Sequence record: DRR723986_4953
DNA length: 42,488 nt
Strand: one strand, 5' to 3'
Shown: positions 5,375 to 29,180 of the stretch, piece after piece
Layout: each line of letters opens with the position of its first letter
Position numbering within the stretch: position 1 is the stretch's first letter
Translations under genes and position numbers: made by a program
Notes under the pieces: generated by a model
Told to the model about the DNA's origin: nothing
The model's database searches: none
The model's input: only the letters and a program-made list of their open reading frames with translations

Positions 5375-5881
5375 CTAGTCGGCGGAGTCTTCGCCGTCCC
5401 AGTAGTCGACTTCGCTTTCCTGCCGGCCGACATAGCGGAACATCCGCGCGCGCTTGCCAGGCAGGCGGGTGGTGGCGAGGAATTTGCCGCTGTCCGGATA
5501 TTCGCAGATCTCGGTGTCGGCCTTGCTGGAAATTGCGACGTATTTCAGCGGGATGCTGCCGGTGTTCGTCAGCTTGTGGGCATGGGCGGGGCCGCCTCGC
5601 GGGGCGCCGAGCACATCGCCTGCCTGAACGGCATGTCTGCCCGGCCCGAAGCGATAGGTGCCTTCGCCTTCCAGGATGACGAACATCTCGTCCTCGGCGT
5701 GGTGGTTATGGAAAGGGCAGGCGGACTTGCCCGGCGGCACGATGCACAGCGCCGCGCCGAGCTGAGTGAGCTCCAGCCTGTCGGAAATGTCGGCATCGAG
5801 GGATTCATAGTGTTCGCCGTGCTCGAACGGTTCGAGCGGCAACTCACCCAGCCGCGCAACGGGGTTCAGTTTCTCTGTCAT
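5375..5881 (-). CDS. Cupin domain protein
   Basis: CPFHNHHAEDEMFVILEGEG..AHKLTNTG cupin motifs; YPDSGK, DYWDGE. Confidence 0.92.
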   Translation of the reverse strand: MTEKLNPVARLGELPLEPFEHGEHYESLDADISDRLELTQLGAALCIVPPGKSACPFHNHHAEDEMFVILEGEGTYRFGPGRHAVQAGDVLGAPRGGPAHAHKLTNTGSIPLKYVAISSKADTEICEYPDSGKFLATTRLPGKRARMFRYVGRQESEVDYWDGEDSAD

Positions 5882-6426
5882 GCGCGATCATACGCCTCCC
5901 TTAGCCAGGCCTTCAGCTCGTCATCGATGTCTGCGGCGCCTGCAAGCTTTACCTTGTGGGTGCACATACTTCCGGGCTTTTCCTCCACCAGCCGGTCTGT
6001 ACCAGGCATGCCTTTCAGGTTGATGCCAAGATCAATCCGCGTTTTCGCAGCGGCGGTTATGACCGCGAAATTCTTTGACCGGCGCAGGGTGACATTGGTT
6101 TTCCTGGGCGAAACGTCGACATCCTTGCCCAGTCCGGCACAGAATGCGGTCAGGGCATCACAGATAGGACGGAGCGTTTCCTTGCCTTCGTATTGCGCTG
6201 TGACGAGATCATCTGCGGACGCGACTGGGCCGCCCTTGGCTTCATGGCAAATCATGTTGGCGTAGCCATGGCCGACGCCCTGATCTTTAAGTAGCTTCAC
6301 CTGTTCGCCATGCTTCTCCAGTCCGCTAGCCTTCACGATGGCGATCCATTGTTCCAGCGTCTTGCCAGTCTTTTCCGGCAGGTTTGCCTTCATCGATTCC
6401 AGCATCTGTTCCGGTGTCTTCGCCAT
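5878..6426 (-). CDS. DUF4287/DUF5655 domain protein
   Basis: NLPEKTGKTLEQW..GHGYAN N-terminus; THKVKL..DIDDELKAWLREAY C-terminus; 4-nt overlap with cupin. Confidence 0.85.
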   Translation of the reverse strand: MAKTPEQMLESMKANLPEKTGKTLEQWIAIVKASGLEKHGEQVKLLKDQGVGHGYANMICHEAKGGPVASADDLVTAQYEGKETLRPICDALTAFCAGLGKDVDVSPRKTNVTLRRSKNFAVITAAAKTRIDLGINLKGMPGTDRLVEEKPGSMCTHKVKLAGAADIDDELKAWLREAYDRA

Positions 6427-6444
6427 TCCATCCTCCCTTTGCGA

Positions 6445-6993
6445 TTATACGTAGCGGCCGAAGGGCCAGTGCTCGATCCGCGTGCTGGCCGGCGCCATCA
6501 GGCTGAAGACGGGTGCCATCATGACAGCCATCCGACCACTGAACAGAGGCTTGCCTGTTTCCGCGATCGATTTCAGGTTTTCCGCGATGAATTTCGCACC
6601 GGGCCCCATGGACTTTTCGGTCTTCGTACCGAAAGGCACATTCTCGGTGATCAGGGAAAACTCGGTTCCGCCATCCACTTCCTTCAGGTCGTAGATCACC
6701 GTGACCGGCGTGTCAGGATACTGGGTGAATTTCATTGTGTGCGCGTAGCGGTGGGGCGGGGAAAATTCGAGTACCTCGCCGACCACCGTCGCATACTTCC
6801 GGTTCTTCGTGACCATGCGCAACGGACGGCCGACTTTCAGGCCATCCTCAGTGTCACAGACGGCGCCGAAGATGAAAGGCAGCACTTCGTCTGTCTTCAC
6901 CAATGTGTCCCACACGATGCGGATGGGCGCATTGATGTGCAGCTTGTAGACCGAGCGGGGCGCGGTCGCGGGCGTTTCGGCGGGGTCTGTCAT
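6445..6993 (-). CDS. SRPBCC/AHSA1 domain protein
   Basis: INAPIRIVWDTL..GEVLEFSPPHR..GGTEFSL; ATG 6993 overlaps the ArsR stop (ATGA). Confidence 0.88.
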   Translation of the reverse strand: MTDPAETPATAPRSVYKLHINAPIRIVWDTLVKTDEVLPFIFGAVCDTEDGLKVGRPLRMVTKNRKYATVVGEVLEFSPPHRYAHTMKFTQYPDTPVTVIYDLKEVDGGTEFSLITENVPFGTKTEKSMGPGAKFIAENLKSIAETGKPLFSGRMAVMMAPVFSLMAPASTRIEHWPFGRYV

Positions 6994-18398: not shown

Positions 18399-19056
18399 TC
18401 ACGCCGCAGGCAACGCGGGCACCAGCCCCGCCGATCGGCTGGGTCATGTGGTCGTCTTCGCCTTCATGGATGATGATGGCTGAGCCGTCATCGGCAACAA
18501 GGGCGCCCAGCGTATCCAGAGTGGTAAAGGCTTCATAGCCGGCCGAGCCGTCCGCGGCCGCCCAGATGTTCGGCAGGTCGCCATTCTCCGGCCCTTTCGG
18601 GTTCAGCAGGCCGTGTCCGCCTTCCATTTTGCCGACATGGCCGCCGGACATCTTGTACATGCCCACATCCGAGCAATCGCCTGTGGCGTGGAGGTGAATG
18701 CCGTGCCAGCCGGGGGCGAGGCTGCCAGGGGCCAGTTCGAGGCGGATCATCAGGCCGTTCGGACCGTCGAGCAGGTTCGCAGACCCGATACTCTGGCCTT
18801 CGAGGCCAATCATGTCGGCCGTTCCACGGGCCATGGTCGGGAAGACGCCGTCGGCCGGGCCCGGCATGTCGGGCATCATGCCCTCGTGGTCCATCATGCC
18901 CTCATGGTCCATCATTTCCATCGGCATGGCGGGTGCGGCGTCTTCTTTGGCTGCGGGAGGAGTCTCGCTACCGGCTTCCTGCGGTGTTGCCTGGGCGACG
19001 CTCGCGCAGGCGCCGAGGGCGATGGCGGATCCGAGAAGGGCAATGCGGCTGATCAT
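18391..19056 (-). CDS. sodC: Cu/Zn superoxide dismutase family lipoprotein
   Basis: Lipobox LGAC; HGIHLH, GGH, GDLPN, IIIH, GARVACGVI. Confidence 0.9.
   Translation of the reverse strand: MISRIALLGSAIALGACASVAQATPQEAGSETPPAAKEDAAPAMPMEMMDHEGMMDHEGMMPDMPGPADGVFPTMARGTADMIGLEGQSIGSANLLDGPNGLMIRLELAPGSLAPGWHGIHLHATGDCSDVGMYKMSGGHVGKMEGGHGLLNPKGPENGDLPNIWAAADGSAGYEAFTTLDTLGALVADDGSAIIIHEGEDDHMTQPIGGAGARVACGVIK
18874..18915. repeat. 18-bp tandem repeat (2.3 copies) encoding MMDHEG
   Basis: CATCATGCCCTCGTGGTC CATCATGCCCTCATGGTC CATCAT. Confidence 0.9.
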
Positions 19057-22159: not shown

Positions 22160-23215
22160 CTAGAAAACCGGTAGCCGCCCCGTGCCGAGGAACGGCATGG
22201 CGAAGGCAAGCGCGATGGAGATGATGAGGCCGAAGAAGGCGCGCGCGGCATCGCCTGTCACGTCGCGCACCGCTTCGCCCTTGTCGCGCAGACCGGCAAT
22301 GTAGGAGATCGCAAGCTCCCGTCCGGCCAGAAGGCCCAGAAACACCCAGGTCGTGCTCATCGGCACGTTGTTGATCTCCTTGAAGAACAAGAGGACCAGC
22401 GCATAGATCAGGTCCACCACGGTGGCGGCCCGCACATCGATCGTGTTCACCTTGCGCTCCACGATGCGCTGGATCTGGCCGCCTTTGGTGGCGAAGATGT
22501 AGCCTTGGATCAAGACGAGCAAGGCTGTGCCGAGGAGAACCGCAACCGGGCCAAAACTGACCGCGGTCTCTCCGTCCGCCATGGTGACGTGCCGGGGCAG
22601 GTAGATGAAGATATTGGCCAGATCCTGCATCAGCCATTGCGACCAGAGGAAAGCGGTCGTGATCCACTGGAAGATCACCCAGTATGGCCAGGGGAGCTCT
22701 TCGCGCGTGTGAAACACCCAGCGTTCGAACGTGTGGGAAATCACAACCCAGATCAGAATGCCGACGCCGAAGGCCACGATGTAGCCCATGGCAGATTTAA
22801 CCAGCATACTGGTCAGCACACCACTGGTTGCCGCTCCGCCTGATAGCGCGAAAAGTGTCAGCACAAGGAAGGTCGTGGAAACCGGAATCCCAAAGCGCGT
22901 GACCACCAGAAGGATCAGCGGTGGCAATGCGTGCCACCATTGAATGCCGGGTTGCAGCACCCCGCTGCGATTGCCTTCACCCGGTAGCACACTCAGCTTG
23001 TCAAGGCGCTCATAGGCGATATCCCCGGCGCCGTGGAAATAACCATAGGCAATCGTGGCGACCATGACGCCGGATGCGAAGCCCCACAATGCCCACCAGG
23101 GCAAGCGCTTGTTGGAAGAGATGAACGTGCCGAGCGTCTGGATCGAGTCATTCGCCACAACAGCATAGGCGGCCAGCATAAAGCCCAGCACGCCGAAAAT
23201 TTCCAAGCTACCCAT
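22160..23215 (-). CDS. Multi-pass membrane protein, PiT (phosphate transporter)-like
   Basis: ANDSIQT and QDLAN repeats plus PVSTT/PMSTT resemble the twin PiT signatures (GANDVAN, PVSTT). Confidence 0.7.
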   Translation of the reverse strand: MGSLEIFGVLGFMLAAYAVVANDSIQTLGTFISSNKRLPWWALWGFASGVMVATIAYGYFHGAGDIAYERLDKLSVLPGEGNRSGVLQPGIQWWHALPPLILLVVTRFGIPVSTTFLVLTLFALSGGAATSGVLTSMLVKSAMGYIVAFGVGILIWVVISHTFERWVFHTREELPWPYWVIFQWITTAFLWSQWLMQDLANIFIYLPRHVTMADGETAVSFGPVAVLLGTALLVLIQGYIFATKGGQIQRIVERKVNTIDVRAATVVDLIYALVLLFFKEINNVPMSTTWVFLGLLAGRELAISYIAGLRDKGEAVRDVTGDAARAFFGLIISIALAFAMPFLGTGRLPVF

Positions 23216-26973: not shown

Positions 26974-27645
26974 ATGACGAAACAGCCGTCCGACACGATC
27001 ATACCGCCCAGCCCGAGCGCTGCAGACTATGCGACAGACCCGATGGGCAAGCCGCTAATTCCGAACGCGGCCGACCCGTTCGACCTGTTCAATGACTGGA
27101 TGGCTGAAGCGCGCGTCAAGGAACTGAACGACTCCAATGCCATGTCGCTCGCCACGGTCGACGCAGATGGCATGCCGGATGTGCGCATTGTCCTGCTGAA
27201 GGAGGTCACGCCGGCGGGCTTCGTTTTCTTCACCAATCTCGAAAGTTCCAAAGGCCAGCAGCTGAAGTCGAACCCGGTGGCGGCGCTTGGTTTCCACTGG
27301 AAAAGCCTGCGCCGTCAGGTCCGCGTCCGTGGCACGGTCGAACGGGTCACCGATGCCGAAGCGGATGAATATTTCGCCACCCGCGCCGCCCAGAGCCGGA
27401 TCAGCGCCATCGCGTCCGACCAGTCGCGCCCGTTGCCCGACCGCTCCGTTTTCGAACAGCGCATTGCCGAGTTGTCCGAAATCTATGGCGATGGACCCGA
27501 CATTCCGCGCCCGAAATTCTGGGGCGGCTTCCGCCTGACGCCGGTCGAGATAGAGTTCTGGCAGGACCAGGCCTTCCGTTCGCACGACCGGTTGCGGTTT
27601 ACGCGCAAGGGCGATGCCTGGGAGACCGGGCGGCTCTATCCTTAA
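26974..27645 (+). CDS. pdxH: Pyridoxamine 5'-phosphate oxidase
   Basis: NAMSLAT, RIVLLK, FFTNLESSKG, RQVRVRG, EFWQDQAFRSHDR, RLYP. Confidence 0.97.
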   Translation: MTKQPSDTIIPPSPSAADYATDPMGKPLIPNAADPFDLFNDWMAEARVKELNDSNAMSLATVDADGMPDVRIVLLKEVTPAGFVFFTNLESSKGQQLKSNPVAALGFHWKSLRRQVRVRGTVERVTDAEADEYFATRAAQSRISAIASDQSRPLPDRSVFEQRIAELSEIYGDGPDIPRPKFWGGFRLTPVEIEFWQDQAFRSHDRLRFTRKGDAWETGRLYP

Positions 27646-28067
27646 TTCGAAGACGCAGGCCGTTCGGCGAGCGGCAGAAGTCGTGAATCCTCAACCGCTG
27701 CCGTGCGGTGGCCGAGGATCTTCATATAGTCCGGATCCTGCTCGAAGCCGAAGAAAGTTTCCATGTCCTTCTGGCGCACCAGAAGGGCAAGGTCCCAGCG
27801 TTCGTCTTCCGGGCCGATCAGCCAGCTGCCGCCTTCTGCCAGGAAATCCAGCCGTCCGCCGCTTTTCTGAAGATCGGGCAGCGTATGCTGGATTTAGAGA
27901 TCATACGCCGCCCGGCCGCTGACGGGGCTTTCCGGCGCAAGGTCCGGAAAGCCTGAATAATCAGCCACTGTCCGCAAGCGGATCAGGTTCAGCATGATGA
28001 CATTCCCGGTCAGCCCCCGCATCACGAAGCGCTGGCCGAGTTCCTGCGTCGGAGCAAGATAAGCCAT
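27642..28067 (-). pseudogene. DUF1330-family gene with in-frame TAA at codon 58
   Basis: Manual translation MAYLAPTQ..MLNLIRLR..SGRAAYDL*IQHTLP..LIGPEDERWDLALLVRQ..HRTAAVEDSRLLPL; stop at 27894-27896; ATG coupled to the upstream TGA. Confidence 0.85.
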
Positions 28068-28519
28068 CAGACCAGCCCGATGGAGGTACGTTCCACCACG
28101 AGGTGGGGCACACCATCGCTGGTCTTCGCGAACGACACCCCGGCCGAGGAAATGGTCATAGTGATCCGTTGGCGGAAGTTGGAAAAGCTCTCGAACTCCA
28201 CCACATCGACAGGTTCGTCGAATTCCAGCGTGACTTCGAAGGCCGTGCCGCCCGCCATTTCGCGGACGGCCAGAACCCGGCCGTCAAAGGCCTGCTTCAG
28301 GTAACGGCCCGCCACCTGGTCGCCGACCTGCAGCACGACTTCCGGCATGTTCGACAGGCGGGCCGAGGCCGTGTTCCAGTCGCGATAGCCAAGCTCCTTC
28401 GCAACGCATTCCAGCGCCTCGGAATGAGAGATGGGCGTTCCGGCTGCCGCCAGTTCCGTCCGCAATTCACGCGCTCGGGCCTTTGCCTGGTCGCGATTTG
28501 AGATCGATAGATAAGACAT
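28067..28519 (-). CDS. Glyoxalase-superfamily (Glyoxalase_8-type N-terminal domain) protein
   Basis: AKARARELR..ISHSEALECVAKELGYRDWNT; C-terminal GDQVAGRYL..FDEPVDVVEFESFSNFRQR. Confidence 0.85.
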   Translation of the reverse strand: MSYLSISNRDQAKARARELRTELAAAGTPISHSEALECVAKELGYRDWNTASARLSNMPEVVLQVGDQVAGRYLKQAFDGRVLAVREMAGGTAFEVTLEFDEPVDVVEFESFSNFRQRITMTISSAGVSFAKTSDGVPHLVVERTSIGLV

Positions 28520-28685
28520 CGGAATCATCCTTGTCCGGGCAGTCACTTATCAGCGGGGCTCGCCTTGCCGCGGGACTGCCGGATGGACCGGTGTTCCGTC
28601 TTTGCGTGTCGCGGCGCCTCTGCGCCGGGGGATCTTCACCGTAAGACAAACGTCTTGCGAGCGGCAGGCGTCCCAGAGCCTGCGC
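28520..28685 (-). ncRNA. Candidate structured 5' leader RNA
   Basis: Five stems within ~160 nt between a TTGACG promoter and the start codon (see findings). Confidence 0.55.
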
Positions 28686-28687
28686 GT

Positions 28688-28716
28688 CACATAATCTCTC
28701 GGCGGTCCTGCGTCAA
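28688..28716 (-). promoter_or_regulatory. Sigma70-type promoter candidate
   Basis: TTGACG-N17-TATGTG on minus strand. Confidence 0.5.
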
Positions 28717-28802
28717 TCGTTGCCAACACGAGCGGCTTCGGGCACCTATTGGCAGTTGACGTGGCAATTCCTGACTGCGTCTCGCATCCATCAGGGGTAT
28801 CC

Positions 28803-29180
28803 ATGAAACGCGGTTTGCAGGTTTTTCTCGGCGTCTTCTCACTCATTCCGGTTATCTTTGCCTTGCTCGGCTTCCTGGCCGGGGCAGGGCGTCTGTCGCC
28901 CGAAGGCGTCGCCGTCGATCTCGACAATCAGTACCGGTACTTTTCCGGTATGTACCTTGTCGTCGCCTTCCTGCTCTGGTCGATCATTCCGGCTATCGAA
29001 AAGCACGGCCGCACGCTGTTCCTGATCAGCGCGGCGATCTTCATCGGCGGCCTTGGACGCGTCGTGTCCTACATGACGATGGGTGCGCCCTCTCAGGACC
29101 TGATGGTCGGCATGGGCATCGAACTGGTCGTGCCGGTGCTCTTCGTGGTCTGGCAGCGCGCCGTGGCGGCGAAGGCCTAG
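28803..29180 (+). CDS. DUF4345 family membrane protein
   Basis: LDNQYRYFSG, IFIGGLGRVVS..G.P; four TMs. Confidence 0.85.
   Translation: MKRGLQVFLGVFSLIPVIFALLGFLAGAGRLSPEGVAVDLDNQYRYFSGMYLVVAFLLWSIIPAIEKHGRTLFLISAAIFIGGLGRVVSYMTMGAPSQDLMVGMGIELVVPVLFVVWQRAVAAKA

Follow-up and report, generated by a model that had tools for sequence, protein, structure and literature searches.

What lies between the promoter and the start codon of a PF20066 (Glyoxalase_8) gene on the minus strand of sequence record DRR723986_4953? The window, by which we mean the whole stretch of DNA that was analysed, is 42,488 nucleotides (nt) long. The original prediction, made from its letters alone, held that a conserved cis-regulator, or an RNA bound by the encoded protein, precedes this gene. 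The conservation of the region, its covariation and its fixed position between promoter and start codon all support that proposal. Comparison with related loci suggests that positions 28520-28683 (minus strand) form the 5' leader of a messenger RNA (mRNA), with a conserved aptamer-like fold of about 140 nt that would start at the very 5' end of the transcript. On sequence grounds the leader RNA appears to form a new class of an already familiar type of element. The reading that we favour, with evenly balanced confidence, is that it is a new riboswitch-like RNA that binds a small molecule directly and controls the translation of the gene behind it.

The elements of the leader are given below in their 5' to 3' order. 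The promoter, stem, ribosome-site and ATG elements named in the original prediction are all present in the sequence at the positions given for them.

28716-28711, minus strand: -35 element TTGACG; TTGAC is invariant in an alignment of eight sequences
28693-28688, minus strand: -10 element TATGTG, 17 nt after the -35 element; TATG is invariant
28683-28678 and 28669-28664, minus strand: P1 hairpin, GCAGGC with GCCUGC around the loop UCUGGGAC (28677-28670); compensatory changes between AU and GC and between CG and UA
28674-28671, minus strand: 5' strand of the first pseudoknot (PK1), GGGA, within the P1 loop; pairs with UCCC at 28632-28629
28662-28657, minus strand: 5' strand of the second pseudoknot (PK2), GCUCGC, with a near-invariant GCC just before it; pairs with 28563-28558
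28656-28652 and 28647-28643, minus strand: P2 hairpin, AAGAC and GUCUU around GUUU; compensatory changes
28640-28635, minus strand: GGUGAA, an invariant unpaired block, 95-100% conserved per position in 71 distinct sequences
28632-28629, minus strand: 3' strand of PK1, UCCC; pairs with the P1 loop
28627-28622 and 28617-28612, minus strand: P3 hairpin, CGGCGC and GCGCCG around AGAG; compensatory changes within Hyphomonadaceae
28598-28520, minus strand: 3' arm, holding the candidate P4, P5 and P6
28598-28585 with 28536-28520, minus strand: P4, a candidate basal helix seen in RNAalifold only; encloses the ribosome site
28580-28574 and 28544-28538, minus strand: P5, GGCAGUC with GACUGCC, supported by the permutation test
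28571-28568 and 28556-28553, minus strand: P6, GCGG with CCGC; its loop is CAAG followed by GCGAGC, the 3' strand of PK2
28563-28558, minus strand: 3' strand of PK2, GCGAGC, in the apical loop of P6
28532-28528, minus strand: ribosome site AAGGA, ahead of the ATG of the PF20066 gene at 28519
28067-28519, minus strand: the PF20066 gene behind the leader, encoding a 150-amino acid protein with a PF20066 Glyoxalase_8 match (E 9e-59)

That the leader is structured, conserved and covarying is borne out, but both of its pseudoknots had been overlooked. PK2 joins the strand following the near-invariant GCC to the apical loop of P6. In a MAFFT alignment of 44 leaders, 100% of its 264 cells are paired, with double changes at 5 of the 6 pairs and zero one-sided changes; the covariants include GCCCGC/GCGGGC, GCUUGC/GCAAGC, GCUCAC/GUGAGC, GCCCGU/ACGGGC, GCCUGC/GCAGGC and GUCCGC/GCGGAC. 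The first set of leaders was gathered by anchors that included the exact PK2 complement, and all leaders with the remaining anchors had that complement too. A larger alignment comprised 72 rows, 71 of them distinct, and the model from which it was built held only P6 as pairs, PK2 being excluded. In these 71 sequences every counted PK2 cell is paired, double changes occur at 5 of the 6 pairs (31 cells) and one-sided changes are confined to 2 cells, both to G-U, the counts being of sequences and not of independent evolutionary events. The covariation score for PK2 and P6 together is 0.348, as against 0.163±0.011 for shuffled alignments (reached by 0 of 500 shuffles), and pairing falls to 24-43% of cells when the partners are slid by 1-3 columns. 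P6 itself has 87-90% of its cells paired, with double changes, over the 44-leader and 71-sequence sets.

PK1 is formed between the P1 loop and the 4-7 bases after the invariant GGUGAA. Because its register slips by one base between lineages, it was tested without an alignment, the longest Watson-Crick duplex between each loop and its own post-GGUGAA segment being compared with that for permuted partners. Own partners form 5.03 base pairs (bp) and permuted ones 3.42±0.14 bp (40 combinations); in the larger set the values are 4.83 and 3.31±0.11 bp (66 combinations), and in neither set do any of 10000 permutations reach the own value. More than 20 different complementary sequence pairs are represented.

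Own-versus-permuted comparison over the 71 sequences also favours P1 (4.60 vs 4.17±0.10 bp), P2 (4.40 vs 2.90±0.11 bp) and P5 (6.93 vs 5.24±0.14 bp), with 0 of 10000 permutations in each case. RNAalifold on eight Hyphomonadaceae leaders found both-sided changes at 6 pairs, located in P1, P2 and P3. The P1, P3 and P5 helices of the original prediction accordingly hold, the first two by their compensatory changes in the eight leaders, and P1 and P5 by the permutations. P2 survives as a 5-bp hairpin with compensatory changes, whereas the outer three pairs of the 8-bp helix first drawn belong to the 5' strand of PK2 and the start of GGUGAA. The hairpin formerly proposed as P4 (CCGG-UCCAU-CCGG, 28591-28579) has to be given up: its CCGG/CCGG stem is missing in L007, and the CAUCC:GGAUG pairing that was to connect it with the ribosome site is lost in L002 (CACCC), L003 (CAGCC) and L004.

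P2 and P3 are the variable hairpins of the fold: P2 is missing in 4 leaders with a short spacer, and P3 is a lineage-specific insert in the linker, missing or different in other clades. The near-invariant unpaired blocks in the 71 sequences are the GCC before PK2, GGUGAA, and GGCAA (GGCAAY) in P6. As the original prediction had it, GCCUGCCGCUC..GGUGAAG blocks do stand ahead of genes of this family in other bacteria. A conserved structured aptamer with covariation, such as characterizes riboswitches, is present in these leaders.

The leaders also have a common relation to the promoter. In 38 of 44 leaders TTGA[CT] lies 52-56 nt, most often 54 nt, upstream of the 5' strand of PK2; a -10-like hexamer follows after about 17 nt, and the motif always occupies the space directly between promoter and start codon, on the sense strand. 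From the fixed -35 spacing we infer that transcription starts at about 28681 +/- 2, that is, at the foot of P1 and away from the ATG. A scan for consensus sigma-70 promoters called none in the leader.

A scan with one genome per species found 17 loci with relatives of the window protein; at one end of their range is Hyphomonas, with 96% identity, and at the other are Bauldia, Ahrensia, Mangrovicoccus and Polycladidibacter. In the eight closest loci, conservation is far higher between the -35 element and the ATG than in the spacer farther upstream. R1, a covariance model of 8 leaders, matches immediately upstream of the PF20066 gene in 16 of 18 sources; it misses L016, where the sequence ends inside the gene, and L017, which a later model recovers. 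With a broader model (R2), 76 sources yielded 72 matches at E<=0.001. In a sample of 401 alphaproteobacterial genomes, PF20066 is matched in 38 and there are 28 full-length loci, every one of which carries the motif; in 27 it stands directly upstream of the PF20066 gene, and in the remaining one (G235) it is followed by a MATE gene and then the PF20066 gene. Searching 151 genomes with R2 yielded credible matches only in 11, each of which also has PF20066, while five weaker ones looked false. Weak R2 matches (L063-L067 and L069; 22-32 bits) were judged false, being situated within open frames, incomplete or devoid of PK2 complementarity, and so were the weak matches in the window at 18400-18452 and 22920-22951.

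Across a phylum-wide sample, PF20066 occurs in 37 of 401 genomes; of the 26 additional loci, 24 have an R2 match beside the gene (22 at E<1e-4). PF20066 was matched in none of the 14 control genomes. The motif is present in one copy per genome, or at most two. A model trained without L051 detects it at 53.9 bits, and loci on a plasmid of the gammaproteobacterium Microbulbifer (78 bits) and in Sinorhizobium meliloti (57.3 bits) are detected too; in named records, the motif ranges over Alpha- and Gammaproteobacteria. In S. meliloti Ak57 (CP090106.1; L243) it is found at 1263-1400, upstream of LZK74_31545, which is annotated as a 'hypothetical protein'.

Catalogues of known RNAs offered no counterpart. 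The whole window has no match in Rfam 15 at the gathering score; at E<=10, region 28400-28900 gives nothing on the leader, the sole row being a 12-nt SAM-SAH match outside it (28868-28879, plus strand). Ten diverse loci searched at E<=1 had no match on the motif, and neither did the S. meliloti and Microbulbifer loci. The original prediction was to be abandoned if homologs lacked conservation and covariation upstream, if a known Rfam family matched or if the start fell close to the ATG; conservation and covariation were found, Rfam gave no match, and the start probably lies at the foot of P1. Literature searches, including 'Glyoxalase_8' and 'PF20066', found no description of the leader RNA. 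A 2026 preprint that catalogues millions of intergenic clusters describes another leader, which precedes genes for glyoxalase, monooxygenase and NmrA, and does not use the word 'efflux'; the cluster tables in its supplement may still hold the motif.

The protein encoded behind the leader does little to justify its family name. It matches PF20066 at full length (198 bits with a cut-off of 23.7; residues 6-143). An AlphaFold2 model (predicted local distance difference test score 82.9) has helices at 9-25, 32-43 and 48-56 followed by a five-stranded small barrel at 68-144, in agreement with the helical N-domain and beta-rich C-domain that had been anticipated. An all-against-representatives fold search recovered Tudor, chromo, KOW and EF-P-type barrels with Z 5-7.1, a range common for small barrels, and Foldseek with the model of the protein gave nothing at E<=0.001. 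The barrel (residues 60-146) aligns with the RNA-polymerase-binding Tudor domains of PcrA and UvrD1 (Z 5.9-6.2, root-mean-square deviation 1.7 A, 24-25% identity over 52-53 residues), scores that are usual for small barrels and provide only a lead. In Pfam the protein does not match PF00903. As modelled, the C-domain is probably a Tudor/SH3-like barrel and not an evident VOC fold, though the absence of a family from the fold matches does not exclude it. The 'glyoxalase' label arises because the N-domain is common to genuine VOC proteins: the PF19581 (Glyoxalase_7) relatives behind the same RNA have a VOC-type domain, whereas the window protein has only the N-domain in common with them. The name 'Glyoxalase_8' is therefore of little help in understanding its function. 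In 240-residue relatives the otherwise unassigned module models as a CBM-like jelly roll (best match 4d0q, E 8.3e-9). Searches of NCBIfam, PADLOC and the PDB (by sequence and by profile) with the window protein and its relatives found nothing, and a protein atlas search returned PF20066 clusters only.

The partner of the RNA is any gene with the N-terminal three-helix domain, together with genes for MATE pumps, and not a 'glyoxalase' gene as such. Further copies head fusions of the PF20066 N-domain to a Glyoxalase_7 VOC domain, and in the phylum-wide sample the architectures comprise the N-domain with Glyoxalase_7, with a ClpX zinc finger or with a 180-residue module of no known family, besides the order motif-MATE-PF20066. 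The fusions to a ClpX-type zinc finger (PF06689; L118 1495-2154) and to Clp_N (PF02861; L192 6021-6650), both behind the motif, hint at a link with Clp unfoldases. A MATE gene comes first behind the motif in L051, L068, L095, L096 and L109. Second motif copies emerged from searches of 31 and 151 genomes and head stand-alone MATE genes in G001, G269 and G004 (Pfam MatE for the G001 and G004 genes). In Hyphomonas jannaschiana (G001), this MATE gene (L068) is on a different contig from the Glyoxalase_8 gene; a transfer RNA gene (1282-1355) stands 146 nt upstream of that motif copy (1501-1642). The MATE units L068, L095 and L096 have no N-domain gene behind them, and their genomes encode N-domain proteins elsewhere.

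An exact-pattern scan of metagenomes, in which the commonest PK2 variant was fixed and gene calls were crude, found at least 120 stretches; 80 loci with 81 instances were listed, and 9 instances left no room for a gene. Among the matches listed, the 72 usable instances are followed by 61 N-domain genes, 10 MATE genes and 1 unclassified gene, and the N-domain genes divide into 21 with the Tudor-like barrel, 16 with an unassigned module, 16 with Glyoxalase_7 and 8 that are cut or of other kinds (one being a Clp_N fusion). On one metagenome contig (L199), two units of motif and N-domain/jelly-roll gene stand in tandem, with the motifs at 5536-5620 and 6426-6508. The motif thus occupies the 5' leaders, as judged from the predicted start, of non-homologous but related genes in separate units, with at least five N-domain architectures in addition to MATE.

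Taken together, we infer that the RNA would bind a small molecule directly, as a riboswitch does, and that this binding would set translation initiation by way of the ribosome site, situated at the base of the 3' arm or just past it. Direct sensing is favoured because of the double-pseudoknot fold, the invariant unpaired bases, the predicted position at the start of the mRNA and the copies before non-homologous genes. The MATE pumps and the N-domain proteins (with Tudor-like barrel, VOC/Glyoxalase_7, jelly roll or Clp N-domains) would constitute the regulon. As such a regulon combines pumps with VOC-type binders, a harmful compound is suggested as the signal, which may be toxic or related to stress. 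In predicted ensembles for 41 leaders, the ribosome-site window is paired at 0.64 on average, its partners being mostly the segment 5' of P5 (0.28) and P5/P6 (0.12); the former pairing agrees with the RNAalifold helix 28598-28585/28536-28520.

Several observations weigh against the riboswitch reading, many of them on its output side. P4, the RNAalifold helix, shows zero double changes, and the window's own ensemble pairs the ribosome site downstream (0.47) and barely with P4 (0.01). When own and permuted partners of the ribosome site are compared, neither the segment 5' of P5 (590 of 10000 permutations) nor the 3' strand of PK1 (1240 of 10000) does better than the P1-loop control (635 of 10000). 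A terminator scan finds none after the motif. Contigs from four metatranscriptome sets cover 28000-28470 (three runs) and 28646-28795 (one run), and none spans the leader. Furthermore, one small domain is common to the genes behind 61 of the 72 listed metagenome instances and behind nearly all of those in genomes, and each genome with an accepted motif also encodes an N-domain protein, a pattern that fits an operator as well. Separately, the 3' strand of PK1 was considered as an anti-ribosome-site strand and rejected, for nothing at the ribosome site is complementary to variants such as UUCCGG (L035) and AUCCGG (L038).

The same gene associations raise the possibility that the leader is a protein-binding operator, the N-domain binding its own mRNA leader in autoregulation and the MATE leaders in trans, with the C-terminal modules serving as sensors. 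At the RNA level it would correspond to a TetR-type repressor and its pump, and we hold it possible but rather unlikely. The motif tracks the N-domain whatever follows it, be it the Tudor-like barrel, Glyoxalase_7, the jelly roll, the ClpX zinc finger or Clp_N: it is present at each of the 28 full-length PF20066 loci in the class sample, every genome that has a credible motif has an N-domain gene as well, and it was not found at E<=1e-4 in G140 and G292, whose proteins have the C-domain only. There are also precedents in the pseudoknotted leaders of the ribosomal proteins S4 (alpha operon), S15 and L20, which are bound by their own products. The arrangement in cis expected of an autoregulatory leader is seen in 61 of the 72 listed metagenome instances and at all full-length PF20066 loci, but not in the MATE-only units L068, L095 and L096; as these have no N-domain gene behind them, the operator would have to act in trans. 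Conversely, four of the seven genomes with N-domain-only PF20066 hits (G030, G094, G256 and G260) have N-domain genes with no motif detected at E<=1e-4. In charge, the window protein's N-domain is close to neutral, with 8 lysine or arginine against 7 aspartate or glutamate residues, and Pfam, NCBIfam and PDB searches found no RNA-binding family, solved relative or fold match for it. Strictly conserved unpaired nucleotides across two classes would also be more typical of metabolite aptamers. A related proposal, which we regard as doubtful and advance tentatively, is that the N-domain of about 55 residues serves for output by binding RNA. The proteins would then be one-component regulators of translation with swappable C-terminal sensors, acting on their own and on MATE leaders.

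It is improbable that the leader is a structured element of some other type, such as a self-cleaving ribozyme, a thermometer or ion sensor, an mRNA-stability element or a trans-acting small RNA derived from the 5' untranslated region. Double-pseudoknot topologies do occur in small ribozymes, the low copy number of one to two per genome would suit such an element, and the pairing on the output side is without covariation support; against this, no ribozyme or thermometer family of Rfam is matched, the motif invariably lies in the sense orientation between promoter and start codon, and the set of genes behind it is narrow and functionally coherent. That the stems arose by chance in a GC-rich spacer, with conservation reflecting merely the promoter or close kinship, is refuted for practical purposes: the 181-nt leader alone folds with a z of only -1.76 (7 of 200 shuffles being equally good) and its 3' half is almost invariant among Hyphomonas relatives, but every helix has compensatory changes over 71 distinct sequences from two classes and metagenomes, and a model trained without L051 detects it, while the Microbulbifer and Sinorhizobium loci are detected too.

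The surroundings of the leader in the window include a second gene of the operon in Hyphomonas:

27642-28067, minus strand: DUF1330-like gene; its start codon overlaps the PF20066 stop codon (ATGA)

Its frame contains an in-frame TAA at 27894-27896 where L001 has TAT, and is otherwise unbroken (92% identity over 135 amino acids); the TAA reflects a nonsense mutation or else a mistake in sequencing. On the other side a divergent DUF4345 gene has its ATG at 28803, and 283 nt separate it from the PF20066 gene. An inverted repeat, ATTGCCA (28768-28762) and TGGCAAC (28725-28719) on the minus strand, adjoins the -35 element, with a third copy TGCCAAT at 28754-28748. This repeat is kept in the window and L001-L005, but L006 and L007 do not conserve it; it may serve as an operator for the divergent DUF4345 gene as well. 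An overlapping open reading frame at 28550-28927 was rejected as coding, since the indels of 1, 2, 4 and 5 nt in the leader alignment leave no conserved frame.

If the leader is a riboswitch, it would define a new class, widespread in soil and marine Proteobacteria including Sinorhizobium meliloti, that controls efflux pumps and uncharacterised binding proteins, and its ligand would explain what the pumps and N-domain proteins defend against. If instead the N-domain binds RNA, its proteins would make up a new family of regulators that act by RNA binding and whose sensor modules can be exchanged. Either way, the leader RNA is a handle on the PF20066 and PF19581 proteins, which have no assigned function, and its compact double-pseudoknot fold is worth structure determination.

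Among known systems, the guanidine-IV riboswitch (mepA motif) and other toxin-responsive riboswitches switch on efflux pumps. The leader described here resembles guanidine-IV as a structured 5' leader before MATE-family efflux genes and, by our reading, in that sensing of a harmful molecule would govern both a pump and a protein that detoxifies or binds. It differs in its length of about 140 nt, its two pseudoknots, the predominance of N-domain genes behind it and the lack of both a terminator stem and an Rfam 15 match. With SAM-II and preQ1-II/III it has in common a hairpin loop that pairs with a downstream strand, a ribosome site near the 3' end of the aptamer and the absence of a terminator. 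In contrast to these riboswitches, a second long-range pseudoknot ties the P5-P6 arm to the 5' domain, the ribosome site lies outside any covarying aptamer helix, and Rfam has no match. The S4, S15 and L20 leaders provide the third comparison, being likewise complex folds before the gene for one protein domain, for which translational control is plausible. Unlike the products of those genes, the N-domain protein is not a known RNA binder, and the motif described here also heads separate MATE genes and spans two proteobacterial classes with its invariant unpaired blocks.

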